Shown here: in pieces, positions 96 through 31,049 of the stretch
How positions within the stretch are numbered: the stretch's first letter is position 1
How the letters are laid out: the number at the start of each line of letters is the position of its first letter
Position numbers and translations under genes: made by a program
The notes under the pieces: generated by a model
Told to the model about the DNA's origin: nothing
Database searches by the model: none
What the model saw: only the letters and a program-made list of their open reading frames with translations
NCBI GenBank assembly: GCA_964361295.1
Contig: CAYIAD010000001.1
Coordinates: 1 to 43,512, forward strand
DNA: 43,512 bases
Source: Candidatus Woesearchaeota archaeon
Lineage (GTDB): Archaea > Nanobdellota > Nanobdellia > Pacearchaeales > GW2011-AR1
Direction of reading: 5' to 3'

Positions 96-1454
96 ATGAA
101 ACTTGAAGGATTATTTCAAGGAAAAAATAGTGTGCTCTATGGTTCTGAATCTGAAAGTGTTTTATATGAAAAACTATCTAATACAATCCACACTGGAAAA
201 AGGGAAAGATTGAACGGATTACAAAAAAGAATAGAAGAATTAAATTATCGACCAATTTTTGAAACTAGTTTTTTAAGGAGATTACAGGATGACCCTCTAA
301 GCATTTTATTTTTAGAAATTACCGAACAATGTAACTTTAGATGTTCCTATTGTATTTATTCTGCAAATTATCCCAATGAGAGAACAGAGACTTCTAAAAA
401 TATGTCTTTTGATACTGCAAAAAAGGCAGTTGAGGGTTTAGTTCCACTCTCAAAAAATAATGTTATGATTGGGTTTTATGGCGGTGAACCCCTACTCAAT
501 ATGGATTTAGTTAAGCAAATAATGGGGTATTCAAAAGAAAAGTTCCCCTATAAAGAATTTGGTTTTTCTATGACTACAAATTTTTTTAATGCTGATAGAT
601 ATATCCAAGATATAGTTGATAATGGAATGTATATTAATTTAAGCTTAGACGGTCCAAAAGAAATTCATGATAAATGCAGAAGAACAAAGAATGGAGAACC
701 GACTTATGATAAGATAATTTCTAATTTAAGAAAGTTCGAAGAATATTCTCCTGGGTATATTGATTCACATATTTTTATTTTGTCGACATGCGACAATCCA
801 ATAGATATACCAAAAATAATAGACTTTTTTGAACAAAATAGATATTTTGTTACACACATTAATAGCCCAGATCCTAAGGGGAGAATAAATTTGGGAAAAA
901 GAATCTCTATGGAGGGTTCTGGAACTAATTTATCTAAAGAATTTACAAGAAGAATCTTAAAAGGAGAAGACCCAAAAATTTTAAGAAGATTATTTGATCA
1001 AGATTTGAAATCTGTTGCAGTGAGAGATGAGAGAATAATACCCCAAGAATTAATGTTAAATGGAAGTTGTTATCCTGGAAAGAAAAGAATTTTTGTAGAT
1101 GTTGATGGAGATTATCATCCTTGTGAAAGGTTTGGACACCGTTTAAATATCGGTTCTGTTGAAGAGGGCGTCCAACAGAATTTAGTGGACGACGCAATTG
1201 AATCTTTTGCGGAAATGAGAAATGAACTCTGCGGAGAATGTTGGGCTCAGAGAATTTGTTCTCCTTGTTTGCAACATGCAAAAGATCCTGAAGGAGAATT
1301 TTCATTAGAGGGATTGTCTCAAACTTGTGAGGGAAAAAAGAGTCAATTATTGATTGCATTAGAAAATTATACAAAATTATTTCAGTCTGATATTCAAAAA
1401 ACAGAAAATTATATTAAAAACATTAATCCACTATTTGAAAGGAGGTTAATCTAA
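96..1454 (+). CDS. Radical SAM enzyme with C-terminal SPASM-type auxiliary cluster domain (peptide/protein-modifying maturase, anSME-like)
   Basis: CNFRCSYCIY carries the CxxxCxxC radical SAM motif and GFYGGEPLL is the SAM-binding glycine motif. C-terminal Cys clusters CYPGKK..DGDYHPCERF and CGECWAQRICSPC fit a SPASM domain. Confidence 0.8.
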   Translation: MKLEGLFQGKNSVLYGSESESVLYEKLSNTIHTGKRERLNGLQKRIEELNYRPIFETSFLRRLQDDPLSILFLEITEQCNFRCSYCIYSANYPNERTETSKNMSFDTAKKAVEGLVPLSKNNVMIGFYGGEPLLNMDLVKQIMGYSKEKFPYKEFGFSMTTNFFNADRYIQDIVDNGMYINLSLDGPKEIHDKCRRTKNGEPTYDKIISNLRKFEEYSPGYIDSHIFILSTCDNPIDIPKIIDFFEQNRYFVTHINSPDPKGRINLGKRISMEGSGTNLSKEFTRRILKGEDPKILRRLFDQDLKSVAVRDERIIPQELMLNGSCYPGKKRIFVDVDGDYHPCERFGHRLNIGSVEEGVQQNLVDDAIESFAEMRNELCGECWAQRICSPCLQHAKDPEGEFSLEGLSQTCEGKKSQLLIALENYTKLFQSDIQKTENYIKNINPLFERRLI

Positions 1455-6439: not shown

Positions 6440-6987
6440 TGGGAAGTCCTTATTGTTTAATCTTGTCAGGACCTTCTGGAAGTGGAAAATCAACAACTGC
6501 TAAAAAACTTTGGAAAGTTCTTGATGGAAATCCTGCATATTTAAGTCTTGATTCTATGAAACATTTTATTCAAGGAGCAAAATCAAACGATTATTTTTTA
6601 GATTTAGCCAGAAATAGTGCTCTTTTATTGACAGAAAATTATCTTAAAGTAGGTCATCCAGTTATTTTAGATAAAGCATTCGGTTCTTATGATTACGTCA
6701 GACCTTTTGTTGAACTTGCTAAAGAAATTGGAGTTGATAGCTATTATTTTAAATTGATTGCTCCCCTGAATATTTTAATTGAAAGAGTAGAAAGTAGAAG
6801 AAACTCTTCATTAGAGGAAAAAATCAAAATCGGAGAGTGGCCCCTCCCTGCCGGAAATGAATTAACAGCGAGATCGATTTATGAATTTTGTGAAAGAAAC
6901 AAACACGAAGAAGGCATAGAAATAGACACGGGAGAAAATTCTCCAGATAAAGTTGTTGAGATTATTCTTTCTCATCTCCAAAAATAG
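6439..6987 (+). CDS. P-loop kinase (AAA_33/zeta-toxin-like small-molecule kinase fold)
   Basis: The Walker A motif is GPSGSGKSTTAKKL. The start shares one nt with the upstream stop (TAATG). Confidence 0.6.
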   Translation: MGSPYCLILSGPSGSGKSTTAKKLWKVLDGNPAYLSLDSMKHFIQGAKSNDYFLDLARNSALLLTENYLKVGHPVILDKAFGSYDYVRPFVELAKEIGVDSYYFKLIAPLNILIERVESRRNSSLEEKIKIGEWPLPAGNELTARSIYEFCERNKHEEGIEIDTGENSPDKVVEIILSHLQK

Positions 6988-8056
6988 TTTTATTTTTCCT
7001 TAATTCACCAAAAAAAGAATTTATTTTTTCTAAGAAAACTCGCTGATTGTCTGAATATTTCTCATGTATTTTTTCATCGAAAATTTTTTCAATATTTTCT
7101 TCCACAAAATTTTCTGGAATGACACAAAGATCACAATTATTTTTCCCACACCAAATATTATATTTTGGTAAGAGTGAATCATTAGAAGCATCAACAATTA
7201 ACTTTAAACCATTGGCCTTAACTATTAAATAAACATGATAATCTAGATCTTGATGAGGCATATCAAGAATTTCTTTTGTAATATTCTGTTCTGACCACTT
7301 AAAAGAACAGACCTTTAACTTAACACCATAACCCAAATTTTCAAGAACTTCCTTTAGTCTAAAGCTTTTTTCCCAACATCGATTATTTATCACATCTAAA
7401 GGTTCATCTCTTATTTTTTCAAATTCCTTAATTACACTAGGATTAATATCTAAATGGTCTATACAATTTAGTTTCTCAACTTTCCATTTTCCATTTTCAA
7501 AAATTAACTCATTAACACAAGTATTTCCCTGAGGGATTTTATACATTTCATCTAACGAAGAATGATCTATAACTCCAAAAACAACTTTGTTTGTTCCTCC
7601 ATGTGCAACAATTAGAATAGTGTCTTTCTCGTGATGATTCTTTTTTATATCTTCGAAAAATGAATTTATCCTTTCAAAATGATTTTTATCACTTTCTCCC
7701 CCAATAGGAATTGCTTCCCATGAGTTTATTCCCTTTTCTACTTGTTGCTTTAAAAAAAGGTTCCATCCTTTTATAATATCTTCCTCTTCTCCAATCACTC
7801 CAAAATCTCTTTCTCTTAATCTCTTATCTAAAATTGGAGTTATATCTTTAGATTCAGAAATGATCTCTGCTGTTTCTTTTGCTCTTATTAAATCAGACGA
7901 ATAAATTGCATTGACATCTAAATTTTCAAATCTTTTCTTTAGAGAATTTGCTTGTTCTTTGCCTAATTCACTTAATGGAAAATCATTTTTTTGGCCCTGA
8001 TGAATGCCTTTCGCATTTCCAATACTTTCTCCATGCCTAATCAAAAAAATTCTCAT
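6962..8056 (-). CDS. Histidine phosphatase (phosphoglycerate mutase superfamily) fused to a C-terminal Cys-His-Asp (transglutaminase-like?) domain
   Basis: The N-terminal domain has LIRHGESIGN (RHG motif), SSDLIRAKETAEII, GGES and VAHGG. The C-terminal ~160 aa carries NRCWEKS ... DYHVYL ... IVDAS, spaced like a transglutaminase-core triad. Confidence 0.7.
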   Translation of the reverse strand: MRIFLIRHGESIGNAKGIHQGQKNDFPLSELGKEQANSLKKRFENLDVNAIYSSDLIRAKETAEIISESKDITPILDKRLRERDFGVIGEEEDIIKGWNLFLKQQVEKGINSWEAIPIGGESDKNHFERINSFFEDIKKNHHEKDTILIVAHGGTNKVVFGVIDHSSLDEMYKIPQGNTCVNELIFENGKWKVEKLNCIDHLDINPSVIKEFEKIRDEPLDVINNRCWEKSFRLKEVLENLGYGVKLKVCSFKWSEQNITKEILDMPHQDLDYHVYLIVKANGLKLIVDASNDSLLPKYNIWCGKNNCDLCVIPENFVEENIEKIFDEKIHEKYSDNQRVFLEKINSFFGELRKNKTIFGDEKE

Positions 8057-8460: not shown

Positions 8461-10689
8461 ATGAAAAGAGGAAGAATTTTATTAGTTATTTTATCTTTAC
8501 TAATTATAATAAATATGTCTGTTATTTTTGCTGGAACTTGTGTGGATACTCAAAGAATTATAAAATTATCGTCGGCAAGTAATTCTCATGGGGCGTTATA
8601 TAATGATGCGAGTACTAAAACAGAAACAATTACTTATCCCCGAATTGCATATTTTGGAGGAATGTATAGTGATCAATATAATAATCCTGCAACAGGAGCA
8701 AAGAGCTGTCCTTCCGGATTTAGTGCAAGCAGACTTTTAGATTCGGATTATAGTAATGTTTTCTTTTGTTACAAAACAAATAGTGGAGCAAATAATGGTT
8801 ATAATTATGGAGGATTAAGTGCAACAGGAATATGCACGGGTCCTCAACCGCCTTATCAAAATCCTAAATTTGTTAGTTTTACTTCTCCTACTTGTCAACC
8901 ATCAACAACTAGAGAATATTACTTTTGTTATAATAATTTTGATGACGCCATTGCGAGGAATTTTGGTGGAATGTATAGTAATTTATATAATAATCCTATA
9001 ACTGGAGGAAAAAATTGTCCCTCTGGATATAATGGAGCGGTAATAAAAGGGTGTACTGGAGACCCAAATAATAATAGAAATAGTGTATTTGGTTGTTCAA
9101 AAATACATTCAGAAACAATAGAAGTTCCTGCTTACAATTATGATGTCTGCTACACTGATTTTTTTCCAGAGTATATCCCAAATGTAGATTTTCCATCACA
9201 TCCTGTTTGTGATTCAACAAATGCAATCTTATGGTTAAGCGCAAATTCAAATGCTCATGCTTCAACAACACAATCTGCAAGTTATAATACTCCTATTTGT
9301 TTTGGAGATTTAATTTGCACTGCAAAGGCAAGTTGTAACGAATTCATAGAAAAAACAATTTTAAGTTTATCAGCAACTACAAATTCACATATTTCTTTTG
9401 GAGATGATTTAAATTATTTAACTAAACTTTGTTGCACTCAATCTCCAGAGAAAAAGAATTGCAATAATAATGGAATTTGTGATGGAACTGAGACTGAACA
9501 GAGTTGTCCTGTAGATTGTGTTAGTTGTGGTATTGGAGAGGAGTGGTGTCTTAATGGATGTAAAACTAATTCTGGGGATGGAAATACTTGTGGAATTGGA
9601 AATGAAAGATTTTGTGATGGTGGAGCCATAGATGGAACTTGCAGTGTTACAGAAAGTTGCAGATGCGCAGATTGCACAAATAAACAAGACCATTGTTCAA
9701 GCGGTTTAATTTGTGGAACAGATTTTTCTTGCAAATCAGCTTCAGATAGTTATTGGTCAACAACAGGAGATAGTTTGGGTTATATTACTGAAATTAATAT
9801 TAATGATAATGGCGGGAGTGTTTTAATGAATCTTATTAATACTAATTTAAATTTAGAAGAACAAGTTATCTTTAATATTTATAATGAACAAATTGATGAG
9901 AGTCATTTTATGGAGAGCATTTCTTCAATAGCTAAAGACACTACAAAAATTAATGCTACATGGGATATTAATTTAGCAGAAATTTCAGATAAGAGAAATA
10001 GAGATTTTTATTTTACAGTTAAGGGGCAAAATAGCCCTGCATTAAAAATAAATATTTTAGATGAGTGTTTTGGTGGTTCAACTCATTGTGATAGATATAC
10101 TGATGCTGATTCATGCATATTAGACCGTTGTGGAGTTGCAAATGCCAGCATTAAAGATACTAAAAATTTAATTTGCGGAGGAAGTTATTCAGATGCTTTT
10201 GGAATTTACACTTATAACTGCGCTTGCATATGGAACTCTACTGCTCAAACATGCAGACCACAAGAAACAAGAAATGACATAGACCCCATAGACGGAAGTC
10301 CTTATAATACTGAATGGCAGGGAAATTGCTCTTTTATTGAAGATATAGAAACAAGCTGTTCAACTGATGAATTTATGAGTTATTCTTGGAGTGGAATATG
10401 GGATTGGGGAAGTGCATCAGATACACAGGAAACAGAAAACCATTTTTTAGGAAGTTCTGTTGGAGCTCCAGAATCAAATAAATATTATTATGACCCAATA
10501 AGTTCAGATGGAGTAACTCGTGAATCTCAATCCTGCATTCTATCGTCGGGAGATAAAATAGTTCCTTGTCCGTCGCAGTTAAAACTTCCGTTTTTTAATT
10601 TCTGGAATGTAATTGCAAGTTTAGTTTTAATTGCTGGGATTTATTTGATTTGGAAAAATAAAAAGAAAATAAGAAAGATGATTAGATAG
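8461..10689 (+). CDS. Large secreted Cys-rich surface protein with C-terminal membrane anchor
   Basis: It has a signal peptide (LLVILSLLIIINMSVIFA) and a C-terminal TM segment followed by a basic tail (WKNKKKIRK). Internal repeats include FGGMYSxxYNNPxTGxKxCPSG (x2) and LSAxSNxH (x3). No enzyme motif was recognised. Confidence 0.7.
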   Translation: MKRGRILLVILSLLIIINMSVIFAGTCVDTQRIIKLSSASNSHGALYNDASTKTETITYPRIAYFGGMYSDQYNNPATGAKSCPSGFSASRLLDSDYSNVFFCYKTNSGANNGYNYGGLSATGICTGPQPPYQNPKFVSFTSPTCQPSTTREYYFCYNNFDDAIARNFGGMYSNLYNNPITGGKNCPSGYNGAVIKGCTGDPNNNRNSVFGCSKIHSETIEVPAYNYDVCYTDFFPEYIPNVDFPSHPVCDSTNAILWLSANSNAHASTTQSASYNTPICFGDLICTAKASCNEFIEKTILSLSATTNSHISFGDDLNYLTKLCCTQSPEKKNCNNNGICDGTETEQSCPVDCVSCGIGEEWCLNGCKTNSGDGNTCGIGNERFCDGGAIDGTCSVTESCRCADCTNKQDHCSSGLICGTDFSCKSASDSYWSTTGDSLGYITEININDNGGSVLMNLINTNLNLEEQVIFNIYNEQIDESHFMESISSIAKDTTKINATWDINLAEISDKRNRDFYFTVKGQNSPALKINILDECFGGSTHCDRYTDADSCILDRCGVANASIKDTKNLICGGSYSDAFGIYTYNCACIWNSTAQTCRPQETRNDIDPIDGSPYNTEWQGNCSFIEDIETSCSTDEFMSYSWSGIWDWGSASDTQETENHFLGSSVGAPESNKYYYDPISSDGVTRESQSCILSSGDKIVPCPSQLKLPFFNFWNVIASLVLIAGIYLIWKNKKKIRKMIR

Positions 10690-10724
10690 AGAGTTTTATT
10701 AAAAATGGGAGATTAAATCAATTT

Positions 10725-10767
10725 AAAGTTTAACTATTTTTCTAAAAAGAAAGCTCCTTTCGGAGCT
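10725..10767 (-). repeat. Orphan copy of the cassette terminator-promoter repeat unit
   Basis: The core AAAGTTTAACTATTTTTCTAAAAA plus the hairpin AGCTCC-tttc-GGAGCT match the units at 11469-11531 and 12233-12297. No cassette ORF follows it on the minus strand. Confidence 0.7.
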
Positions 10768-10779
10768 ATTAAAATAAAT

Positions 10780-11085
10780 TTATTTTTTAAGTTCTGCAAG
10801 AATTCTTTTAGCAGTTTCAACTATCTTTTTATCAGAATACGCTTCATGTGTATCTTCGTGCATTCCGTATTGATAAAGTGCAGAAAGTCCACCTAGAGCT
10901 AACTCAATCTCTGTTGGAACTGGCTGAGACTTCAAATAGTCATTATACACCTGAAGCCCTCCATATTCTAATTCATAAGCAACAATTTCTCGATAAGCAG
11001 TTTCATCTTCTGGATTTTCAAGAAATCTTTCATAAAGCCCAATTAATTCTTGCTTCATTCTTTGGAAATCTACTGCTTCAGTCAT
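10780..11085 (-). CDS. Cassette 3 small partner protein (101 aa, helical; paralog of 11541-11834)
   Basis: It overlaps the upstream ORF by 4 nt. It shares ..YE.EYGGL.. and ..LS.LYQYG.. blocks and the K(K/R)ILxxLKK C-terminus with the 97-aa protein. Confidence 0.7.
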   Translation of the reverse strand: MTEAVDFQRMKQELIGLYERFLENPEDETAYREIVAYELEYGGLQVYNDYLKSQPVPTEIELALGGLSALYQYGMHEDTHEAYSDKKIVETAKRILAELKK

Positions 11086-11468
11086 TTTTGCTCTCTTTCT
11101 TTAAGCCACTTTAATAATTTTGGAATATCTAATTTATCTGCAGATGAATCTGCCATTGCAGCATCATAACTATTTATCTCTGCTATTTTCTTACCACTAT
11201 AACTTTTAAATAAAGCTTTTCCACCTGGCCGTTCGTGTATATGCAATTGAAATCCCGACGCAGGGAAATCTCTTATTGTCAATGGTCCACTCGGCACAGA
11301 CGGAGTATGTCCGAACATCGGAATATCGTTAAACTTCAAAGGACCACTTCCAACTCTGTAAAGAGCACTTGCACTTAAATATTCTAAATTACCGACTACA
11401 AAATAAGTTTTTGGCTGTTGTTGTCTAGAAATTCCTGTTTGATACATTTCTAAAGTTTGCTCAAGCAT
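11082..11468 (-). CDS. Cassette 3 long ORF (128 aa): conserved N-terminal module plus HIHE-type variable C-terminus
   Basis: The N-terminus MLEQTLEMYQTGISRQQQPKTYFVVGNLEYLSASALY is near-identical to that of the 11837-12232 and 12620-12952 ORFs at both protein and DNA level. Confidence 0.75.
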   Translation of the reverse strand: MLEQTLEMYQTGISRQQQPKTYFVVGNLEYLSASALYRVGSGPLKFNDIPMFGHTPSVPSGPLTIRDFPASGFQLHIHERPGGKALFKSYSGKKIAEINSYDAAMADSSADKLDIPKLLKWLKEREQK

Positions 11469-11531
11469 AGAAACTAAAATAATTCAAAGTTTAACTATTT
11501 TTCTAAAAATAAGACGGCTCTTTTCAGAACC
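11469..11531 (-). repeat. Cassette terminator-promoter repeat unit (copy 2)
   Basis: AGAAACTAAAATAATTCAAAGTTTAACTATTTTTCTAAAAA is identical to 12233-12273 and is followed by an imperfect hairpin GGCTCT-tttc-AGAACC. On the minus strand the order is hairpin, T-run, ATAGTTAAA box, 21 nt, ATG. Confidence 0.7.
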
Positions 11532-11540
11532 ATTAAAAAA

Positions 11541-11834
11541 TTATTTTTTTAATACTAATAAAACTTCCTTAGCTTTGTGAATTAGTTCGGCATTGGAATA
11601 ACCTACTTCTTTTGGACGCAATCCGTATTGATAAATTGTTGAGAGTCTACCTATTGCCTCGGCTAATTCAGGAGAAATATATTTTATATAGTGTTCTGAT
11701 ACAAGACCCCCGTATTTTCTATCATATCTAATTGCTTCTTTTATAGCTTCTTCTCGAGACTTATCGTTTAAGAATTTTAGATAAATCTCGATTAATTCTT
11801 TTAGCATTATTTCTTCATTGACTTCTTCTGCCAT
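11541..11834 (-). CDS. Cassette 2 small partner protein (97 aa, helical; paralog of 10780-11085)
   Basis: It starts 2 nt after the stop of the 131-aa ORF and is paralogous to the 101-aa protein. Confidence 0.7.
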   Translation of the reverse strand: MAEEVNEEIMLKELIEIYLKFLNDKSREEAIKEAIRYDRKYGGLVSEHYIKYISPELAEAIGRLSTIYQYGLRPKEVGYSNAELIHKAKEVLLVLKK

Positions 11835-11836
11835 TT

Positions 11837-12232
11837 TTATATTCTACCGGTTCTTTTGCATTTATCAAGTTTAATATATCTGGGGATGCCGAGTTCATCT
11901 GCATGTAAATCTGCTATTGCAGCATCAATCGAGTCGAGAAGTTCTTTTGTTCCATCGGGATATTTAATATGTCCTGTTCCCCCTGCGCCCTCATGGATAT
12001 GAAGTTCAAAACCTGAGAATGGTCTTATTGTCAATGGTCCACTCGACATAGACTGCGTATGTCCGAACATCGGAATATCACTAAACTCCAAAGGTCCACT
12101 TCCACCTAATGGCTTACTTGAATACAAAGCACTTGCACTTAAATATTCCAAATTTACGACGACAAAATAAGTTTTTGCCTGTCGTTGTCTAGAAATTCCT
12201 GTTTGATACATTTCTAAAGTTTGCTCAAGCAT
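11837..12232 (-). CDS. Cassette 2 long ORF (131 aa): conserved N-terminal module plus HIHE-type variable C-terminus
   Basis: The N-terminus is MLEQTLEMYQTGISRQRQAKTYFVVVNLEYLSASALY. The C-terminal ..GFELHIHEGAGGTGH.. tail is related to cassette 3 but diverged. Confidence 0.75.
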   Translation of the reverse strand: MLEQTLEMYQTGISRQRQAKTYFVVVNLEYLSASALYSSKPLGGSGPLEFSDIPMFGHTQSMSSGPLTIRPFSGFELHIHEGAGGTGHIKYPDGTKELLDSIDAAIADLHADELGIPRYIKLDKCKRTGRI

Positions 12233-12297
12233 AGAAACTAAAATAATTCAAAGTTTAACTATTTTTCTAAAAATAAAAGAAAGCTCCTTTCGGAGCC
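12233..12297 (-). repeat. Cassette terminator-promoter repeat unit (copy 3)
   Basis: It contains the same 41-nt block as copy 2 plus the hairpin GCTCC-tttc-GGAGC. On the minus strand the hairpin is followed by TTTCTTTTATTTTT. Confidence 0.7.
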
Positions 12298-12306
12298 AAA
12301 AATAAA

Positions 12307-12633
12307 TTAAAGAAGGTAACTTTTAATTACATCTACTAAAAAGGTTCTATTTTTAGGATCTGACCGAATAATTAAAATTATTCTATTAGAAGCAATTATC
12401 AAATCTATATCAAACTTTTCGTTGATAAAATTATCCAAATAACTTTTTAATTCCCAGATTTTATCTTCTTGGGATTGGTATTTCTCTTTAATTGCTTCAG
12501 ATATTAATCCAAATCCTAATTTTTCAAGCAAATCCGGAAATATTTTAAAAAAATTTCTGTCTTTTTTAAATATATAAAAAGTTCTTTTCTCATTATTTCC
12601 AGATCCAACTAAATTTATCTTATTGGTCATCAT
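12307..12633 (-). CDS. Cassette 1 small partner protein (108 aa), unrelated to the other two partners
   Basis: It overlaps the upstream 110-aa ORF by 14 nt. I see no similarity to the 97/101-aa proteins and no recognisable motif. Confidence 0.6.
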   Translation of the reverse strand: MMTNKINLVGSGNNEKRTFYIFKKDRNFFKIFPDLLEKLGFGLISEAIKEKYQSQEDKIWELKSYLDNFINEKFDIDLIIASNRIILIIRSDPKNRTFLVDVIKSYLL

Positions 12634-12952
12634 TGAAAATTCTTAGCTTTTTACCCTTTTTAGGGGTAAACGAAAAGTGATCAAAAGAGATATTCCCTTC
12701 CTTATCAATTTTAAAAGTTTCATGAACATCTTTTAATTCTGGAATTCTAAAATTTCCATAAGGAATTATCGCACCAATCCTCATTGGAATAATTCTTGCA
12801 TTTAAAGGTCCGCTTCCACCTAAGGGTCCGCTTGAATACAAAGCACTTGCACTCAAATATTCCAAATTTCCGACTACAAAATAAGTTTTTGGCGGTTGTT
12901 GTCTAGAAATTCCTGTTTGATACATTTCTAAAGTTTGTTCAAGTTGTTGCAT
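12620..12952 (-). CDS. Cassette 1 long ORF (110 aa): conserved N-terminal module plus unrelated C-terminus
   Basis: The N-terminus MQQLEQTLEMYQTGISRQQPPKTYFVVGNLEYLSASALYSSGPLGGSGPL is conserved. The tail NARIIPMRIGAIIPYGNFRIPELKDVHETFKIDKEGN.. differs from cassettes 2 and 3. Confidence 0.7.
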   Translation of the reverse strand: MQQLEQTLEMYQTGISRQQPPKTYFVVGNLEYLSASALYSSGPLGGSGPLNARIIPMRIGAIIPYGNFRIPELKDVHETFKIDKEGNISFDHFSFTPKKGKKLRIFNDDQ

Positions 12953-14117
12953 TTTTTTTACCTCCTTTTAATTGCAGTGGTTTGTCGCACTCTGCTGACG
13001 CTTGTTTAAAGTATTTAAGCAAATCATCTTTTTTAAATAATCTTATTCCAGATTTCAAACTTAAAGCATTTCTTAAATAAGTTCTGGAATAATCTAATCC
13101 ATGAGTATTTTCTTTTGAATTTTCAGGAAAATTTAAAGCAAATCTCATTTGTTTTTGACTTTGTTCTAAGTTATACTCTATTGCTTGTTTTGAAATTTGC
13201 TGATATGAACATCTTTGTTTCGCTTTTTCAAAATATACTTTGTCTCCTAAAATAAATTTCCCGGTCATTATAGGATTAGTAACTGCAAGATCAAACAGAT
13301 TTAATCTTCTTTCAAAATCTTCAATAGAATAGACTCGAACATCTAACCAAGATTGAGTTTCTGGCAAAGTTTCAGAAACAACAAAAATATCAATATCACT
13401 AAACTCTTTTCTTGAACCATATAATAATGCAAATTTTACCCCTCTAAGTTTATCTTTGTAAATATCTTCCAACAATCCCCCAACCCTCTTAGTAGTTGTT
13501 CTTCTCGCCATTCCTTGTACATAAAAAGTTGCTAAATTTCCAAATTGTTCTGAAAAATTAATTACTCCTTCGACAATTTGCCTATTTTCTTTCTTTAAAG
13601 AATTATATTTTCTTTCAAAATCTTCCCTTAAATTATGCTCTCCTGAAAGTAAATATTCTGTCCAAATAGCAAATAATTCATATTGAGATAGATTTCTTTT
13701 TCTAAATTTATCTAATTCTTGGAAAGTTTGATTTTGTTGTCTAAATCTTTGAACATCTTTCAAAGTAAATCTTCCAGAAGAAAACTCTTGTTTTTCTTCT
13801 TCTAATAATCTTTTTTCTAAATCTACTAATTTTCTTCCCAATAAAGATTGCTCACAACAAAGTCCATGCCCAAAATATTCGTGAAATAGACTTAAGGGAT
13901 TTTCTATTTGAACTAAGGCAGTTTGATTCCTAGGAAGATATATTCCCGAAGAATTTGGGTTTAGTCCTATTTGTTCTGCAAATTCATTCCATTTATTTTC
14001 TGGAATTTGTTGTAAAGAAGTTTGTTCTAATTTGTATCCTAATAGTTCTTGATAAAATTCGTTAGAAAAATCTAAAATTGTTTTTATTTTTGGCGCTTGT
14101 GTTTGAACTTGCTCCAT
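12939..14117 (-). CDS. Nucleotidyltransferase-domain protein (minimal Pol-beta/MNT-like core) with N-terminal HExxxH region; lead gene of the cassette locus
   Basis: FALLYGSRKEFSDIDIFVV fits the GS...DxD NTase signature, though the spacer is short. The N-terminal part carries LFHEYFGHGLCCE and the C-terminal part is a helical region. It overlaps the next gene by 14 nt. Confidence 0.5.
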   Translation of the reverse strand: MEQVQTQAPKIKTILDFSNEFYQELLGYKLEQTSLQQIPENKWNEFAEQIGLNPNSSGIYLPRNQTALVQIENPLSLFHEYFGHGLCCEQSLLGRKLVDLEKRLLEEEKQEFSSGRFTLKDVQRFRQQNQTFQELDKFRKRNLSQYELFAIWTEYLLSGEHNLREDFERKYNSLKKENRQIVEGVINFSEQFGNLATFYVQGMARRTTTKRVGGLLEDIYKDKLRGVKFALLYGSRKEFSDIDIFVVSETLPETQSWLDVRVYSIEDFERRLNLFDLAVTNPIMTGKFILGDKVYFEKAKQRCSYQQISKQAIEYNLEQSQKQMRFALNFPENSKENTHGLDYSRTYLRNALSLKSGIRLFKKDDLLKYFKQASAECDKPLQLKGGKKNATT

Positions 14118-14349: not shown

Positions 14350-14793
14350 ATGAAAAATAAAATTATAGTCTTTGTTTATGATAAGAAAAAAGACAAGTTT
14401 TTATTAATAAACAACACTAAACATCCAAATCACTCACTTAATGGAGGGTTGTTTACTATTAATCTTTCAATAAACCATAATGAATACGCAAAGAGCATAG
14501 CAGTAGAGCAGATTAAAAAAGAAATTGGGTTAATTCCAGAAGAAGTATTTTCTCTGAATTGGGGGGCAGTTTATAGTTTAAATGATGAAGAGTTTAAGGA
14601 AATGAATTTTCTCGCTTTTGTAAATCCTGATAAAAACAATCTTGATAAACATTCGTCTAAACACAAATGGTATAGCATAAATCCATTTATAGAAAAAATT
14701 GAATGGAAAGATGACAAAGAGCTATTAAAGAAAATTTTGATAAAAGGAATAAACAAAGAAGTTTTTTTTGATAAAAAAGAAAGAGGAAATTAG
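14350..14793 (+). CDS. Hypothetical protein, possibly Nudix-fold with a degenerate Nudix box
   Basis: GGLFTINLS..EYAKSIAVEQIKKEIGL resembles Gx5Ex7REUxEExGU, but the catalytic glutamates are not conserved. Confidence 0.3.
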   Translation: MKNKIIVFVYDKKKDKFLLINNTKHPNHSLNGGLFTINLSINHNEYAKSIAVEQIKKEIGLIPEEVFSLNWGAVYSLNDEEFKEMNFLAFVNPDKNNLDKHSSKHKWYSINPFIEKIEWKDDKELLKKILIKGINKEVFFDKKERGN

Positions 14794-15779
14794 AGAATAA
14801 TATCTCGGTTATTAGAGTAAATTTCTTCTACTTTTGTTTCTTCCGGTTTACTTTGATTATCCATTAAAGTTAAATTAACTTTATGCTTTACATTTCCTAC
14901 AAGAATATTGCCAATTTCATACTTTTTAACTTCATTTAATAAAGAAGATAATTTCCATTCCGGAGGTATCTTAAAATCTTCATTTAACATGGCGTAGGTT
15001 TCAATTGTAGAACCTTTATATCTCTTATATGGTCTATCATAGAATCCAAACATTTCAGTTATTAAATCTCCACCGAGATAAATTTTCTTGCTTACATTTG
15101 CTAATTTATTCCGGGTGTATTTTATTACCTTTTCTTTTATCTCTTTTTGATTTTTATATATTTCTTTCTTGGGAAGTAAATAGTTTATATGTTCTGAGTC
15201 ATTTATTGACTCAATCTTCCACTTGTTCTGTGAAAATTCTAATATGTTAATACACGTGTTATCTTGTTTAATCTTTACAAAATCACTTTTTTCTCTTCCC
15301 TGAGAGAGATTAATGAATACCGAATTTACGCCTGAATGAGCTATTACTCCTATTACCCCTTCTTCTTTCTGAATGTCTTGTAAAAACGACTTTACTCTTT
15401 TGATTAAATCCCAAATGTTCTCTCCACCAAAAGGTCTTATTTCATATTTTGTAATTCCAGATTTGAGAATTTCATTATACTTTTCATTCCACTTTTCAGA
15501 GGAGGGGTCAACATTGCCAGGTTCGTATTCTCTCAATCTTTCATCTGAAAATATTTTAACGCTTGAGACATTACTTATTTCGTCCGCAGTTTGTATTGCT
15601 CTCTTTAGATTGCTATAAAATAATTTATTAAAATGAATCGCTTTTAATCTTTCTGCTAATTTTTTGGATTGAATCACTCCCTGCTTGTTTAGGGACGTTT
15701 GATTATTCTGTCCCCATTCCAAGCTATCTCTATTAAAATCTGTCTCTCCATGTCTTATAAGATATATTTTTAGACTCAT
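14790..15779 (-). CDS. Histidine phosphatase (PGAM superfamily) fused to an uncharacterised ~120-aa C-terminal domain
   Basis: PGAM motifs are YLIRHGETDFN, YSNLKRAIQTADEI, GGENIWD and VIAHSG. It is a paralog of 16795-17757 along its full length. Confidence 0.75.
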   Translation of the reverse strand: MSLKIYLIRHGETDFNRDSLEWGQNNQTSLNKQGVIQSKKLAERLKAIHFNKLFYSNLKRAIQTADEISNVSSVKIFSDERLREYEPGNVDPSSEKWNEKYNEILKSGITKYEIRPFGGENIWDLIKRVKSFLQDIQKEEGVIGVIAHSGVNSVFINLSQGREKSDFVKIKQDNTCINILEFSQNKWKIESINDSEHINYLLPKKEIYKNQKEIKEKVIKYTRNKLANVSKKIYLGGDLITEMFGFYDRPYKRYKGSTIETYAMLNEDFKIPPEWKLSSLLNEVKKYEIGNILVGNVKHKVNLTLMDNQSKPEETKVEEIYSNNRDIIL

Positions 15780-16794: not shown

Positions 16795-17757
16795 TTATTT
16801 TATTACCTCCTTTATAGCATCTTCTTTTAGAAGCTCAAACGGAAGAGTAATATTGATTTTATGTTTTGTATCTCCAATACTAACTGAGCCAATCTCATAC
16901 TTCTCAAAGGCTTCATTTATTTCCGATATTTTCCATTCTTTTGGAATTTTTAAATTGTCTTTAAACTTTATGAAGACTTCTATTGGTGAACCCCAATGTC
17001 TCTTGTGTGGACGATTATAATAACTAATTTTATTCATAGCAAAGTCTCCAGTAACAGCAATCCTGTCACATAAATTTCCTATTTTATTCAAAATAAATTT
17101 ATTTATTTCTTTTTTTACCTTGATCTGATCTACATAGGCTTTTTCTTCTGGCAAAAATGTAGACATGTGATTTGAATCGTTTATCACTTTTATACTCCAT
17201 TGACCTTTAGAGTACTCAAGAATATTAATGCAGGTATTGTCCTGTTTCACCTTAATAAAATCATTTTTTTCCCTTAGCTGAGACATATTAACAAAAGCTC
17301 CATTGAAACCAGAATGAGATATTATCAAGATATTTCCTTCTTCTGTCTCTAAATCTTTCATGAATGATTTCATTCTTTTTATAATATCCCAAATATTCTC
17401 TCCTCCATAGGGTCTTATTTCTTCCTTAGGAACTCCTTGTTCAAGCAATTCATCATACTTTTTACGCCATTCTTCAGAAGATTGATCTACTCCGCCAGAG
17501 TCATATTCTCTTAGTCGCTTATCTAAAAAAACAGGAGCATTTATTATTTTTGTAATGATTTTTGTTGTTTCGGTAGCCCTTCTTAAATCACTAGAGAATA
17601 TTTTTTTAAATTTAATATTTTTAATCCTTTCAGAAAGTTTTTTTACCTGTTCGATACCAAACTCATTTAATGAAATGTCGGGATGTTGCCCCCATTTCTT
17701 TTTTTGTCTATTAGTTTCTGTCTCCCCATGCCGAACAAGATATACTTTTAGTGTCAT
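16795..17757 (-). CDS. Histidine phosphatase (PGAM superfamily) fused to an uncharacterised C-terminal domain (paralog of 14790-15779)
   Basis: PGAM motifs are YLVRHGETETN, SSDLRRATETTKII, GGENIWD and IISHSG. The C-terminal ..VTGDFAMNKISYYNRPHKRHWGSPIEVFIKF.. aligns with its paralog. Confidence 0.75.
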   Translation of the reverse strand: MTLKVYLVRHGETETNRQKKKWGQHPDISLNEFGIEQVKKLSERIKNIKFKKIFSSDLRRATETTKIITKIINAPVFLDKRLREYDSGGVDQSSEEWRKKYDELLEQGVPKEEIRPYGGENIWDIIKRMKSFMKDLETEEGNILIISHSGFNGAFVNMSQLREKNDFIKVKQDNTCINILEYSKGQWSIKVINDSNHMSTFLPEEKAYVDQIKVKKEINKFILNKIGNLCDRIAVTGDFAMNKISYYNRPHKRHWGSPIEVFIKFKDNLKIPKEWKISEINEAFEKYEIGSVSIGDTKHKINITLPFELLKEDAIKEVIK

Positions 17758-26322: not shown

Positions 26323-26730
26323 ATGGTGAAAGAAAACAAAAAAACACTGGGAAAAATAAAGGGATTTACAATTCAGTTCTTGCCTTATTCTGAAATTAGA
26401 AATCTAGACAGTGATGAGAGAATAAAAAAAATTCTTAATATAATTTTAGGAAATAGTATAATTCTTTTACAGGGGAAATTAAGCGCAGAAGAAGAATCCC
26501 GGTTAATTGGAGACACAATGGCGATGATTGGGCATGTAAATAATTTCAAAGGGATTGAACTTGCAGTGATTTCCAATAGTGAAGAAAGTTTTTTTGGTAA
26601 AGTCAGATTTGGTCTTGTGAAGGCACTTTCTGGAGGAGATTTAGGAGCGATAACAATTATTGGTCCTGCTTCTATTGTAAAAGAAATAAAAAGAAATCCA
26701 AAGAAGATTGAATTAATGTTAAATAAGTAG
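26323..26730 (+). CDS. Conserved archaeal protein of unknown function (DUF2073-like), GTPase-linked
   Basis: Its position between a GTPase and a Zn-ribbon protein matches a gene triad I recall as conserved in archaea. I see no catalytic motif. Confidence 0.45.
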   Translation: MVKENKKTLGKIKGFTIQFLPYSEIRNLDSDERIKKILNIILGNSIILLQGKLSAEEESRLIGDTMAMIGHVNNFKGIELAVISNSEESFFGKVRFGLVKALSGGDLGAITIIGPASIVKEIKRNPKKIELMLNK

Positions 26731-26731
26731 A

Positions 26732-26745
26732 GAAAAGATTAAATA
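26732..26745 (+). promoter_or_regulatory. BRE/TATA-like box GAAAAGATTAAATA
   Basis: It ends 21 nt before the ATG at 26767, which opens a 13-codon micro-ORF. The Zn-ribbon gene ATG is at 26826. Confidence 0.45.
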
Positions 26746-26825
26746 GTTTATTTCTTTAATTAAATTATGCCAATGGCATCCTTTAATTTTTGTTATTGGC
26801 TAAAATAAAATTCAAAAATCAAAAA

Positions 26826-27248
26826 ATGCCACACCAGTGCGTCAAGTGTTCTAGAATTATTCCTGCTGGAAGTCGGGAGCTTTTAGAAGGATGTGCAGAA
26901 TGCAAAGGGCATTTCTTTTTTTATATTAGAGATGATCAATTAGCTAGAATAAGAGAAAATCCAGTTGAAATTCCAGAAGGAGACAAAGCATCAATTGAAA
27001 AAGACATCAGAGAAATGGCTGGAATTGTAGAAGAAAATGCTCCAGTAATTTTGGATATTGAATCTGTTAGAGTAACTGGAGATGGAAAGTTTGAAATAGA
27101 CATTGTTAATTTGTTTAAAAAAGACAGACCTTTGATTTACAAATTAGAAGAAGGAAAATATATCATTGATTTAGCTACGACATTAAGCAGAAATCTTAAG
27201 GATATAAAAGAAATTGTTGATCCTGATGAAAAGAAAAAAGAAGATTAA
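26826..27248 (+). CDS. Zn-ribbon protein (archaeal DUF2072-like)
   Basis: MPHQCVKCS...GCAECKG gives a CxxC...CxxC ribbon and the C-terminus is acidic. The ORF-track start at 26790 is TTG, so the first ATG is used. Confidence 0.6.
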   Translation: MPHQCVKCSRIIPAGSRELLEGCAECKGHFFFYIRDDQLARIRENPVEIPEGDKASIEKDIREMAGIVEENAPVILDIESVRVTGDGKFEIDIVNLFKKDRPLIYKLEEGKYIIDLATTLSRNLKDIKEIVDPDEKKKED

Positions 27249-27288: not shown

Positions 27289-27810
27289 TTAGAGGGAATT
27301 TTCAACATTATGAATTTTTTTAATAGTTTTAATAATCTTTGAAATCTCTGATTTTTTTCTTAGAATTAAATATTTTTTATTGTATTTTTTTATTATCTCG
27401 CTATGTGCATGTAACGATACAGGATTTTTTGTATAGTGATATTTGCATACTTCTTTCGCTAATTTAATTGCCTCAAAAAGAGTATCCTTTTTGTGCTTTA
27501 CTCTAAATAGATGTCTGCTTAAGATTCTATAAATACAAAGAATTTTGGAGGTATGCATAAGTATAATTATATCGGCTTTTTTGAAAGCATCTTCAGCGTA
27601 ATTCGACCATGTTCCCTCGGTTATCCATTCTGATAAATTACAAATTTTCTGAAGTTTTCTTACCCTCTCTTCCACATCTCGAATCTTGCTGTATTTAATT
27701 TCATACTTTAAGTCATCTAATGCATAACTTTTTATTCCAAATTTCTTAGATAAAATCTTTGCTAAAGTTGATTTCCCCGAACCATAAATCCCACAAATAT
27801 GTATTCTCAT
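27289..27810 (-). CDS. P-loop NMP-kinase-like protein (adenylate kinase / FlaR-type)
   Basis: The Walker A motif is ICGIYGSGKSTLAKIL, and the ~170-aa size fits. It is the last gene of the seven-gene operon. Confidence 0.6.
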   Translation of the reverse strand: MRIHICGIYGSGKSTLAKILSKKFGIKSYALDDLKYEIKYSKIRDVEERVRKLQKICNLSEWITEGTWSNYAEDAFKKADIIILMHTSKILCIYRILSRHLFRVKHKKDTLFEAIKLAKEVCKYHYTKNPVSLHAHSEIIKKYNKKYLILRKKSEISKIIKTIKKIHNVENSL

Positions 27811-28391
27811 TTGGTTAGATAATCTCGATTATTTAGATATTCCACTAAACACCCTTGCTCTCTCAATTCTATTTCTGAAACAGCACAATTACTAAATTTT
27901 AATTTTTTTATGGCATCAACAGGATTCATTCCTAATTGCAATCCTAAAAACATCTTTAAAAACCAACCATGTGAGATTAAAATATTACGTTCTCCACCCC
28001 GAGAGATTATAATATCTAATCCTTGAGTGGAGCGATTAACCAAATCAGATAAACTTTCTCCTCCTTCAGGTCGAGTGTTTATTGGATCGGATAAACTTAA
28101 TCTTTCAATATCCGCCTTTCTGTTCCCATTCCAAACACCATTATTTATTTCTCTAAATATAGGGCTATAATATACAGGTATATCTCTATTCCTTGAAATT
28201 TCTTTTGTTAAAACTTTACATCGATAGGCATCACTAGAATAACAATTATTAAAATCTTCAGATTGTAATCTCCTTACTAGTTGTTGAATTTGTTCGTAAC
28301 CTTTTGGAGAAATATCTCCCTCGACTTCATGCTGGACTATTCCTTGTATATTTGCTAGAGTAACTGGATGTCTAATCATAATTAATTTCAT
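27807..28391 (-). CDS. Histidine phosphatase (PGAM superfamily), RHP variant
   Basis: Motifs are IMIRHPVTLAN, YSSDAYRCKVLTKEI, PEGGESLSDL and LISHGWF. Confidence 0.75.
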   Translation of the reverse strand: MKLIMIRHPVTLANIQGIVQHEVEGDISPKGYEQIQQLVRRLQSEDFNNCYSSDAYRCKVLTKEISRNRDIPVYYSPIFREINNGVWNGNRKADIERLSLSDPINTRPEGGESLSDLVNRSTQGLDIIISRGGERNILISHGWFLKMFLGLQLGMNPVDAIKKLKFSNCAVSEIELREQGCLVEYLNNRDYLTK

Positions 28392-28392
28392 T

Positions 28393-28983
28393 CTATACCT
28401 CTTGATTGAATATATTTAAATTGAATTCCCCCTTGTTTAATTCTCCCATTGAAAACGTACAATTTTTTATTCTTATTTCAGATATGGTCTTTTTTAAGTC
28501 ATAGCCGATAAGGTACCCAATCAAAATGCGAAGAGGAAGATTATGACTTATTATTAAAATGATCGAATCTTCTGGTAAAGAGTTTATTTTAATCATTAAT
28601 GCTAATAATCTTTCTTTTACATCCCTCAAACTATCCCCTCCCGGAGCCTTTCTAGTTTCAAAAGGCTGTTTATTTATTTCTGTCCAGTCAACTTCAGAAT
28701 TCTTCAATCCTTCAAACAAACCATTGGATTTGTCTCTTAATAAGGGTGTAATTAATAAATTATAATTATTTTTATTCTTCAAAAGTTCTTGAGCAGTCTT
28801 TATACATCTTGGCGAATCACTGGAGAAACAAAAGTTTACCATATATTTATTTAGATATTCTTTCATTGAATTTAATTGATTTCTCCCATTTTCTGTAAAA
28901 TTGGCAGTGTGATGTAGTTGTTGCATTGCTAATAAATTTTCTTCTGTTTCTGGATGCCTGATAAAAATTAATCTTTTCACCAT
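28393..28983 (-). CDS. Histidine phosphatase (PGAM superfamily), RHP variant
   Basis: Motifs are IFIRHPETEEN, FSSDSPRCIKTAQEL, APGGDSLRDV and IISHNLP. Confidence 0.7.
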   Translation of the reverse strand: MVKRLIFIRHPETEENLLAMQQLHHTANFTENGRNQLNSMKEYLNKYMVNFCFSSDSPRCIKTAQELLKNKNNYNLLITPLLRDKSNGLFEGLKNSEVDWTEINKQPFETRKAPGGDSLRDVKERLLALMIKINSLPEDSIILIISHNLPLRILIGYLIGYDLKKTISEIRIKNCTFSMGELNKGEFNLNIFNQEV

Positions 28984-29561
28984 TCCGACCTCCGAATTTC
29001 TCTTATTGTTGGATCTGTTTTGCCGGAATTATCTATAAGTTTGCATTCTTCATAATTTTTTGCAATCTCTAAGTAGCCAGTTCTTTGCCTATTTAGGAAT
29101 TCTGAAGAATATCCTACAAATCCATCTCTTGCTCTTTCAGATATCCTTTTAATAAGAACATCTAAAGGTGCCATAAGAATAAATGTTTGATTCGGGATAG
29201 GAATTCCTAACCTTAAATTTTTTTCAATTATTCTAGAAATTGAAAAATCTTTTTGAAATTGTAAAACTGCACTTGTATAGTATCCTCGATCTAATAATAC
29301 AAAACCAGGTTCATCTCTCAAATCTAAATATTTTGAATATACCTGTAACCTTGCTTGTGCAACCATATTAATTATCTCCTCTGGCTCAGAGATAACACCC
29401 TTTCTTATATTTTTTCTTACTTCTATCATTTCAGGATATTCGGAGTCCTTAAAAGTTCTGCAGGAAATTCCTTCTACATTAAAGCATTCTTTTAAATTAT
29501 TTAAAATGGTACTCTTTCCTACTCCGTTTGGCCCTTCAAAACAGATTAGTTTTGTTTTCAT
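28977..29561 (-). CDS. Thymidylate kinase-like (dTMP kinase family) P-loop kinase
   Basis: LICFEGPNGVGKSTILNNL, ..ARLQVY.. and VLLDRGYYTSAVLQ match the Tmk pattern (fEG.dG.GKsT ... DRy..S..aYQ). Confidence 0.65.
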   Translation of the reverse strand: MKTKLICFEGPNGVGKSTILNNLKECFNVEGISCRTFKDSEYPEMIEVRKNIRKGVISEPEEIINMVAQARLQVYSKYLDLRDEPGFVLLDRGYYTSAVLQFQKDFSISRIIEKNLRLGIPIPNQTFILMAPLDVLIKRISERARDGFVGYSSEFLNRQRTGYLEIAKNYEECKLIDNSGKTDPTIREIRRSEW

Positions 29562-30439: not shown

Positions 30440-31049
30440 ATTTATTGCTCTCCTTTTTAATTAGAGGGGATTCTTCGATAATCCATTTACCCGATTCAGA
30501 ACGGGAAATAGTCATATAAGAAGAATTTGGAAATTCGTAATTTAATAGGTATTCTTGAATATCTTCGTTAAATATTAAACAAAATAATATTCTTAAAAAA
30601 GTTCCATGTGACACTACCAAAACCATTTCTTCTTGCTTAAATTCATTTAAAATTTTAAAAAAGGCGGAAGCACGTATAATAACATCTTTTACACTTTCTC
30701 CTCTAGGAATTTTTTTATCTAAAAAACTTCCTTTGACTAATGACCAATCTACTTCGCTAACTAATTTATCTGAAAAATCCCCACTACTTTTCTCTCTTAT
30801 TAAAGGCGTTTTTTTAAACTCTTTATTTATCCTTTTAGAGATTATCTCTGCAGATTCTATCGCTCTCTTTTCATCGCTTGAAATTATTTCATCAAAGTTA
30901 AATTTGTCTAGTTTTTCCTGCAATCTTAATATCTGCATTTTACCCTCATCAGTTAATGAATCTTTTGGACTTTGTAATCTCTTTTCCAGATTATAAATCG
31001 TCTCGCCATGTCTTAATAAAATTATTTTAAGATTTTTACCGGAGTTCAT
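30432..31049 (-). CDS. Histidine phosphatase (PGAM superfamily)
   Basis: Motifs are IILLRHGETIYN, ISSDEKRAIESAEII, PRGESVKDV and VVSHGTF. The ORF-track start at 31091 is TTG, so the first ATG (MNSGKNLKII..) is used. Confidence 0.75.
   Translation of the reverse strand: MNSGKNLKIILLRHGETIYNLEKRLQSPKDSLTDEGKMQILRLQEKLDKFNFDEIISSDEKRAIESAEIISKRINKEFKKTPLIREKSSGDFSDKLVSEVDWSLVKGSFLDKKIPRGESVKDVIIRASAFFKILNEFKQEEMVLVVSHGTFLRILFCLIFNEDIQEYLLNYEFPNSSYMTISRSESGKWIIEESPLIKKESNKYG

Follow-up and report, generated by a model that had tools for sequence, protein, structure and literature searches.

The 43,512-nucleotide (nt) stretch analysed here (the window; positions 1 to 43,512 of contig CAYIAD010000001.1, assembly GCA_964361295.1, Candidatus Woesearchaeota archaeon) carries on its minus strand an operon in which a gene that we call C is followed by three pairs of small genes, A1-B1', A2-B2 and A3-B3. 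The A proteins begin with a shared N-terminal segment of about 38 residues, the N-module, and continue through a linker into a C-terminal tail of variable type; the B gene that follows encodes a partner particular to that tail. Genes C, A and B are linked across DPANN genomes, tail and B families co-vary, the junctions between cassettes are homogenised within a genome, and the N-module tracks C. We read the locus as a three-component DPANN system in which effector/immunity-like cassettes would be tethered by the N-module to a common enzyme C, a reading in which we place roughly even confidence.

A preliminary description of this DNA had singled out the three A-B pairs and interpreted them as a polymorphic toxin-immunity array. 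The architectural part of that interpretation stands, with at least 11 tails on one N-module and co-varying partners; for the functional part no match to a known toxin, immunity or secretion domain was obtained. The conserved upstream gene C, the junction repeats, a third copy of the junction after B3 and the recurrence of the A1/B1' pair, which is not a one-off, are additions to it.

The cassette array and its spread among DPANN archaea

The gene order is C, A1, B1', A2, B2, A3, B3, the array forming the 3' part of an operon that is headed by C. Its features, in the direction of transcription and with lengths in amino acids (aa), are as follows.

12939-14117, minus strand: gene C, 392 aa, operon head, with a possible zincin-like N-domain and a nucleotidyltransferase
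12960-12965, minus strand: Shine-Dalgarno sequence GGAGGT of A1, inside the 3' end of C, 7 nt ahead of the A1 ATG
12620-12952, minus strand: A1, 110 aa; N-module aa 1-39 (nt 12836-12952; N-module hidden Markov model (HMM) E=6e-16), SGPLGGSGPL linker, type-2 tail (IPELKDVHETFKIDKEGN..)
12307-12633, minus strand: B1', 108 aa; cognate partner of type-2 tails (..KFDIDLIIASNRIILIIR..)
12234-12297, minus strand: junction J1, directly upstream of A2; hairpin GGCTCCGAAAGGAGCT and T-run at 12282-12297, promoter-like box TTTTTAGAAAAATAGTTAAACTTT at 12234-12277; repeat family D3
11837-12232, minus strand: A2, 131 aa; N-module aa 1-37 (nt 12122-12232), linker, type-1 'HIHE' tail aa ~65-122 (nt 11867-12040)
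11541-11834, minus strand: B2, 97 aa; helical type-1 partner
11470-11533, minus strand: junction J2, upstream of A3; hairpin ATGGTTCTGAAAAGAGCCGT at 11514-11533, promoter-like box at 11470-11513
11082-11468, minus strand: A3, 128 aa; N-module aa 1-37 (nt 11358-11468), type-1 'HIHE' tail
10780-11085, minus strand: B3, 101 aa; type-1 partner, paralogue of B2
10709-10767, minus strand: junction J3, after B3 with no A gene behind it; hairpin AGCTCCGAAAGGAGCT at 10752-10767, box at 10709-10752; 3' boundary of the last cassette

All six open reading frames of the three pairs lie where the preliminary description had placed them on the minus strand, and its count of 13 mismatches in 137 nt between the first two copies was reproduced; any two A genes differ at 7-8 positions in their first 105 nt, and the first ~37-39 residues of A1-A3 are 84-92% identical. 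Its distinction between the tails also holds, since that of A1 is unrelated to that of A2 (BLASTP E=6.4), whereas homology between A2 and A3 runs from end to end (65% aa identity). The partner follows the tail, as it had proposed: B2 is a paralogue of B3 (38% identity, E=6e-17), and B1' is unrelated to either (E=4.6). Translational coupling is borne out by a 14-nt overlap between A1 and B1', a 4-nt overlap (ATGA) between A3 and B3 and a gap of 2 nt between A2 and B2. A1 is in turn coupled to C, with its GGAGGT ribosome-binding site lying within the last codons of the upstream gene.

Behind each B gene come a terminator-like hairpin, GCTCCGAAAGGAGC or a variant of it with a T-run after it, and the AT-rich box TTTTTAGAAAAATAGTTAAACTTT; the homogenised repeat reaches ~70 nt upstream of A2 and of A3. 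One repeat, D1, spans junction and N-module over 154 nt at 95% identity (11359-11512 versus 12123-12276), which is far beyond chance; the remaining cassette sequence cannot be aligned. The homogenisation of 5' ends noted earlier for the window is seen within each genome surveyed. The mean N-module identity is 0.76 within a locus and 0.52 between loci, and at the DNA level within-locus identity of the N-module is 0.89-0.99 while the remainder stays at a background of ~0.5-0.6. In four loci (L001, L014, L044 and L050) direct repeats of 120-260 nt, 88-99% identical, cover the hairpin, the promoter or Shine-Dalgarno sequence and the N-module, and in L044 they run into the last codons of unrelated B genes. 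Because conservation in these repeats extends to synonymous and non-coding positions, gene conversion or recombination accounts for them better than selection at the protein level alone.

The array is unlikely to have arisen as an assembly artefact, since A3 is also present on a second contig. Independent assemblies of the same population, from Hainich H51 groundwater (L069-L073), contain an identical C, and all of them stop ~100 nt past B1', at the junction repeat. It follows that a single assembly supports how many cassettes lie downstream of B1' and in what exact order.

How widely is this arrangement distributed? In a survey of one genome per GTDB species we found 62 loci with C, all of them in DPANN metagenome-assembled genomes (MAGs) bar a few that are probably mis-binned, and C-A-B is counted in 60+ genomes of Pacearchaeota, Woesearchaeota and Nanoarchaeota. 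The host of the window is itself Pacearchaeota-like, in agreement with the reduced-genome archaeon inferred before. Homologues of C number more than 245 at 50-70% identity, and are from Pacearchaeota or Woesearchaeota wherever a name is given; C is usually present once per genome. A gene with the N-module stands directly after C in 38 of the 56 loci that have enough downstream sequence, at least two further A genes after C (L018, L043) having been missed by the HMM and seen by eye. In clades whose C is ~30-45% identical the A-B pair is immediately upstream of C (L046, L055, L061). Loci hold from one to four cassettes. Three of them (L044, L037, L065) present the archaeal operon in MAGs labelled Paceibacteria, Gammaproteobacteria or 'bacterium', labels that are most likely binning errors rather than signs of transfer to bacteria. 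A viral or mobile-element origin was considered and rejected: no C turned up among the viral contigs of IMG/VR, and the window is part of an ordinary archaeal chromosome.

Homologues of the shared N-terminus are modular and occur in one to four cassettes per locus; they are not the single-copy proteins, uniformly conserved over their full length, that would be the alternative. A word-index search returned 21 A-like proteins, one of them labelled Nanoarchaeota, and a profile search of 1.84 billion representatives returned 178 A proteins, part of which match through the N-module alone and part through the 'HIHE' tail alone. Clustering the last 60 residues of 197 non-redundant N-module proteins gave 16 tail clusters, 11 of which have two or more members (97, 25, 14, 12, 12, 9, 8 and smaller). 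By sequence, then, the C-terminal families joined to one N-module of ~38 aa in DPANN genomes number at least 11 and are unrelated to one another. Those families include the following.

LHIHEGAGG..SYDAAMADL: tails of A2 and A3 of the window
IPELKDVHETFKID..GN: tail of A1 of the window
GLTIKK..HPDGHG
IGxTHHxxGLGKLK: type-4 tail
PLxRLDF..HLQYG..R.GxEA
TWxxxPQP..LGGIENLN
ERxRA..HLNYE..NxHI
NFGETxxGxQ..GESH

Each tail family is accompanied by its own downstream B family, the type-4 A genes being the exception. When tails and B proteins were clustered independently, the two partitions agreed with an adjusted Rand index of 0.83 and an adjusted mutual information of 0.79, values reached by none of 10,000 label permutations. 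This co-variation shows the integrity of the cassette, not binding, because the pairs are inherited together. The A1/B1' pair of the window recurs as a pair in L004, L009, L021 and L024, and further homologues of its type-2 tail are P0188, P0233 and P0264. In two loci (L001 8998-9144; L035 1652-1792) type-4 A genes ('IGxTHHxxGLGKLK') are without a B gene, and a conserved stretch, a pseudo-ORF, comes after them that translates in both as 'PEQxVPTxKRALTVxPSSTFDEGLNSAGAL'; it matches no tRNA or Rfam family, and could be a small protein or else an RNA not yet described.

The variable domains are small (45-70 aa), and are joined to the N-module by a linker rich in G (17%), S (12%) and P (10%). An invariant Tyr closes the N-module; a GG after it is not conserved. 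In an AlphaFold2 (AF2) model of A2, built with 63 sequences, N-module and linker have pLDDT values of 52-59, with a short helix over EYLSASALY only, and residues ~65-122 form a confident beta4-alpha-beta domain (pLDDT 89-96). The N-module is thus modelled as a low-confidence peptide, and is probably disordered. Within the type-1 tail family H78, H80, Y102 and D108 (A2 numbering) are nearly invariant, a pattern that suggests a metal or catalytic site. The type-1 B proteins are helical, and in an alignment of 20 their conservation is limited to hydrophobic or structural positions (Y18, A60, A88, L95). They have no relatives in the PDB, and from their sequences look like binders, not enzymes. It is because type-1 tails keep H, H, Y and D while type-1 B proteins keep hydrophobic residues only that we take A to be the effector of the pair.

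Two other interpretations of the type-1 tail were set aside. Weak Foldseek matches of the A2 model to papain-lobe, Josephin, chemokine and SH3-like structures were judged meaningless, and a His-Me-finger nuclease reading of the 'HIHE' hairpin and helix was dropped, having no Foldseek support. A metagenomic protein of 109 aa, P0228, has an N-terminal ~50 aa that matches the start of C (..YTSLLGYSIQKTSLKEL..WNSF..), and 'SSG' marks its fusion to a type-1 HIHE tail. Such a protein would be a genuine product of deletion or recombination, or else an assembly chimera.

Enzyme C and its relation to the N-module

The AF2 model of C (pLDDT 89.7) comprises two parts. The N-terminal domain, ~aa 1-205, has a three-stranded sheet followed by a helix that bears the invariant motif FHEYFGHGLxxE (H79-E80-x-x-G83-H84 and E89), with E101 and E108 beyond it. 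It has no HMM match, and its Foldseek matches to the peptidase domains of M9 collagenases are non-significant (E=0.08-1). The HExxGH spacing occurs in metallopeptidase family M49. A zincin-like fold is possible for this domain, judging from the model. The C-terminal half, ~aa 210-375, consists of a Pol-beta-type nucleotidyltransferase and a helical KNTase/HEPN-like domain, and the last ~18 aa are disordered. The nucleotidyltransferase residues GS..DID (GSRKEFSDID) and D259 are invariant; matches to the Pfam Polbeta and NCBIfam MntA models are weak and below cut-off, and the profile of C also touches kanamycin nucleotidyltransferase. The best Foldseek match of this half is HalB (E=1.6e-5 over ~153 aligned columns, TM-score (target) ~0.49, ~18% identity); the NTase-like protein 3c18 is matched as well, and the minimal nucleotidyltransferase (MNT) antitoxins 7bxo and 7ae9 more weakly.

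The extreme C-terminus of C has a simpler explanation than its conservation might suggest. C proteins with an A gene directly downstream end in '..LKGG' because the codons AAA-GGA-GGT hold the Shine-Dalgarno sequence of A1, and this ending is gone in the clades with A-B upstream. A ubiquitin-like reading of the '..LKGG + 2-6 aa' end was rejected on these grounds.

Similarity between N-modules follows similarity between C proteins across genomes (Mantel r=0.44, none of 5000 permutations), and tail families are scattered. A second line of evidence comes from some Woesearchaeota with a 'short C' of 245-250 aa, which covers only C residues ~229-372 (hhalign 93%, E=2.5e-7) and has no N-domain. In four of these loci (L075, 3253-5468; L076; L081; L084) the A-like protein encoded downstream has a long N-terminal region of low complexity and no N-module, and that of L075 keeps the type-1 tail, followed by a type-1 B. 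As far as the sequences go, this fits a division of labour in which the tail would pair with B, and perhaps with the nucleotidyltransferase, and the N-module with the N-domain of C.

The mechanism that we propose has three steps. The N-module would be a docking or processing handle that ties all effectors of a genome to its single C, probably by docking on the N-terminal domain of C through strand addition by the 'TYFVV' segment. The tail would be the effector, and B a tail-specific, non-enzymatic binder, immunity- or antitoxin-like, that neutralises it. New tail-B units would be brought in by homologous recombination between the conserved junctions. That docking, neutralisation and exchange at junctions all apply together is, in our estimate, an evenly balanced proposition. 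What C might then do to its cargo is more speculative. It could remove the tag proteolytically or, by analogy with MntA and HalB, it could nucleotidylylate the invariant Tyr at the end of the tag, in either case controlling effector activity; each of these we regard as a minority possibility. Since the cassettes are genetically tied to C, a C-dependent intracellular mechanism of the toxin-antitoxin (TA) kind is at least as likely as a secreted toxin of the contact-dependent inhibition (CDI), Rhs or LXG type.

Two known systems bear on the catalytic half of C. MntA, of the type VII TA system HepT/MntA, AMPylates a Tyr of HepT and so neutralises the toxin. C resembles it in that its minimal nucleotidyltransferase is of Pol-beta type, has GS..DxD and is genetically tied to small protein pairs with coupled translation, and the Tyr that MntA targets on its toxin could have an analogue in the invariant Tyr that ends the N-module. 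The differences are also clear: sequence inspection found no HEPN Rx4-6H motif in A1-A3, in B1-B3 or in the C-terminal helices of C, the 390-aa C carries an additional N-domain in fusion, and one C serves several unrelated A/B pairs. The second is Hailong, whose HalB provides the best structural match of the C-terminal half of C and primes nucleotide addition on a Tyr hydroxyl (PDB 9dbh/9dbi/9dbj). Unlike Hailong, the operon encodes no transmembrane (TM) HalA-like channel, and C, whose likeness to HalB is one of predicted fold, has its additional N-domain.

Competing explanations and known systems

The layout of the locus is that of polymorphic toxin-immunity loci such as CDI (CdiA-CT/CdiI), Rhs, LXG and MafB (Zhang/Aravind), which likewise have a constant N-terminal part, interchangeable C-terminal modules and a co-varying small gene immediately downstream, and which form cassette arrays with a homogenised constant/variable junction that can be used for recombination. 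It departs from them in several respects. The constant part is 38 aa and probably disordered, compared with a large secretion or trafficking domain; each cassette is a complete gene with its own predicted promoter, not a promoterless orphan; the tails, of 45-70 aa, match no toxin family; and a conserved enzyme, C, heads the locus. On these grounds C-A-B would not count as a member of the CDI, Rhs or LXG families: no secretion domain was found in it, and the tails matched no Pfam toxin family and the A2 model no PDB or BFVD fold.

These same features bear on whether A proteins are polymorphic toxins exported for delivery to the episymbiont's host cell or to its competitors, with the N-module as an export or loading signal, C as a maturation or loading factor and B as the protector of the producer. 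Constant N-termini, variable C-termini, cognate downstream genes and arrays with homogenised 5' ends would all be expected of such toxins; a Cys-rich surface protein adjoins the locus in eight cases, the window included, and DPANN archaea live attached to other cells. Against this, inspection finds no signal peptide or TM segment in A proteins, as the preliminary description had also reported, nor is there a secretion-associated match in Pfam or NCBIfam; the constant part is short and predicted to be disordered, no tail resembles a known toxin, and the locus is absent from viral contigs and lies outside obvious conflict islands. We also know of no archaeal pathway for such cargo. Export in this form seems to us unlikely.

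An equally unlikely arrangement is one of reversed polarity, in the manner of a type II TA system, in which A would be a labile antitoxin or adaptor, the N-module a degron for the metallopeptidase-like domain of C, and B a toxin set free when A is degraded. A first gene with a disordered region, a compact second product and translational coupling are the pattern of an antitoxin-toxin operon, and the invariant HExxGH..E of C and the low-confidence prediction of the N-module are compatible with proteolysis. The distribution of conserved residues points the other way, however: type-1 B proteins have no catalytic-looking positions and the A tails have conserved polar His, Asp and Tyr. Moreover, type-4 A genes are found without any B, and no DNA-binding domain is detectable in A.

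Slightly less probable again is a role outside conflict, in which A proteins would be interchangeable substrate receptors, F-box-like, that bring B to C for nucleotidylylation or processing in a housekeeping or regulatory pathway of DPANN archaea. The high conservation of C, its usually single copy and its housekeeping context accord with this, and a short N-module with linker and binding domain is adaptor-like. Makarova et al. (2019, PMC6393860) list a family specific to DPANN archaea, 'MNT fused to HEPN', that lies in housekeeping contexts, and do not mention downstream cassettes; C may be identical with this family or related to it. At least 11 tail families with their own partners, a copy number of one to four and homogenised junctions are, however, signatures of a diversifying conflict system, and the B families lack the conserved functional residues of regulated enzymes. 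TA-chaperone (TAC) systems and F-box logic are functional analogies only: they too have a short handle that creates dependence on a conserved third protein, and one hub with many modules, but C-A-B has no SecB-like chaperone or Skp1-like hub, and there is no relation in sequence or fold.

Very improbable, finally, is a precursor array for ribosomally synthesised and post-translationally modified peptides (RiPPs), with the N-module as leader and the tails as cores matured by C and perhaps by a radical-SAM (rSAM)/SPASM enzyme of the window, since the leader-like N-terminus, the GG-containing linker, the tandem precursor-like genes and the rSAM/SPASM genes in the window (96-1454) and beside the L001 array are set against tails that fold independently as confident ~58-aa domains (pLDDT ~90-96), not short unstructured cores, each with a dedicated partner gene, against an rSAM that is not a conserved neighbour and against a GG that is not conserved after the N-module.

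Several points weigh against our own reading of tethered effector/immunity-like cassettes. No A, B or tail family rises above noise in Pfam, NCBIfam, PADLOC, PHROGs or PDB sequences, in keeping with the earlier statement that none of the modules is recognisable. A Foldseek search with a predicted structure, which the preliminary description had recommended, gave no match for the A2 model at E<0.01 in the PDB or BFVD. There being no family or fold matches, 'effector' and 'immunity' are drawn from architecture only. The zincin-like assignment of the C N-domain comes from a motif, a topology and non-significant Foldseek matches. Vertical co-inheritance by itself could account for the correlation between N-module and C, there are few short-C cases and these cluster phylogenetically, and L077 (3001-3731) holds an A/B pair with another N-terminus and no adjacent C. 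Tail diversity is skewed, one family being found on 97 of the 197 A proteins. C, moreover, is unusually conserved and lies in housekeeping neighbourhoods, not defence islands, which is atypical of conflict systems.

We would place the locus among polymorphic effector/partner cassettes of the polymorphic-toxin and TA kind, the novelty lying in A and B families that are wholly undescribed and in the extra hub enzyme. No prior description of it was found in the literature searched on DPANN polymorphic toxins, on NEQ050 or on archaeal self/non-self systems. A bolder version, which we think improbable but somewhat less so than the export or reversed-polarity schemes, is that C-A-B is a lineage-wide DPANN effector system in which a nucleotidyltransferase-peptidase hub licenses swappable mini-effectors through the 38-aa tag, either by nucleotidylylating its Tyr or by removing it, for use against the host archaeon, rival episymbionts or viruses. 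Were this true, the delivery or control of polymorphic effectors would have gained a new mechanistic class, and some dozen effector folds with their matching inhibitors would be new.

The DPANN archaea, symbionts with reduced genomes, are abundant and remain uncultivated. To our knowledge, almost nothing has been established of their means of conflict and host interaction, and few known defence systems are encoded in their genomes. Few systems in these organisms are, like the C-A-B locus, present across the lineage, clearly modular and in rapid diversification, and all of its proteins belong to the unannotated 'dark matter'. It provides a testable three-way map of interactions, in which the N-module goes with C and the tail with B, and some dozen new mini-domains that have their own inhibitors; MNT/HalB-type nucleotidyltransferases may have a new use here, and the junctions of hairpin, promoter and tag form a natural architecture for cassette exchange. 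Should the tails prove to be toxins, polymorphic-toxin logic would extend to archaea without a known secretion apparatus; should they not, the locus would define a new kind of adaptor system, centred on an enzyme that is a DPANN signature.

Neighbouring genes in the window

The window is AT-rich archaeal chromosome (GC ~30%), in which no tRNA or Rfam RNA was found; its genes include those for aCPSF1/FttA, a CCA-adding enzyme, archease, OapB/OapC and TrmB. Convergent to the array, on the plus strand at 8461-10689, is a gene for a 742-aa Cys-rich secreted protein with the repeated motif 'LS[SA]x[ST]N[SA]H', a C-terminal 'PCPxQxxLPFF' and a TM anchor. Homologues adjoin C-A-B in 8 of ~57 loci, including the window (for example L006 8000-9850 and L050 9678-11114), an association that may be no more than synteny, or may mean that a surface adhesin is functionally linked to the locus.

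The rSAM/SPASM gene of the window is on the plus strand at 96-1454, and another lies directly past the array of L001 (L001 9650-10948, minus strand), where there is also an MvdD-like ATP-grasp gene; neither type is a conserved neighbour overall. At least four paralogous His_Phos_1 genes (6962-8056, 14790-15779, 16795-17757 and 27807-28391) are interleaved with glycosyltransferases, the window's open reading frames at 28393-29561 being outside the scan, and an expansion of this kind is unusual for a reduced genome. OapB and OapC are encoded at 26323-27248 on the plus strand, with switches of strand and skew close by (~21-27 kb), and a replication origin is probably near them. A second nucleotidyltransferase, of Pol-beta/GlnD type (456 aa), adjoins the CCA-adding enzyme (31036-32406, minus strand, and 32656-34002, plus strand); it appears to be unrelated to C, and the CCA-adding enzyme also matches the SMODS model.

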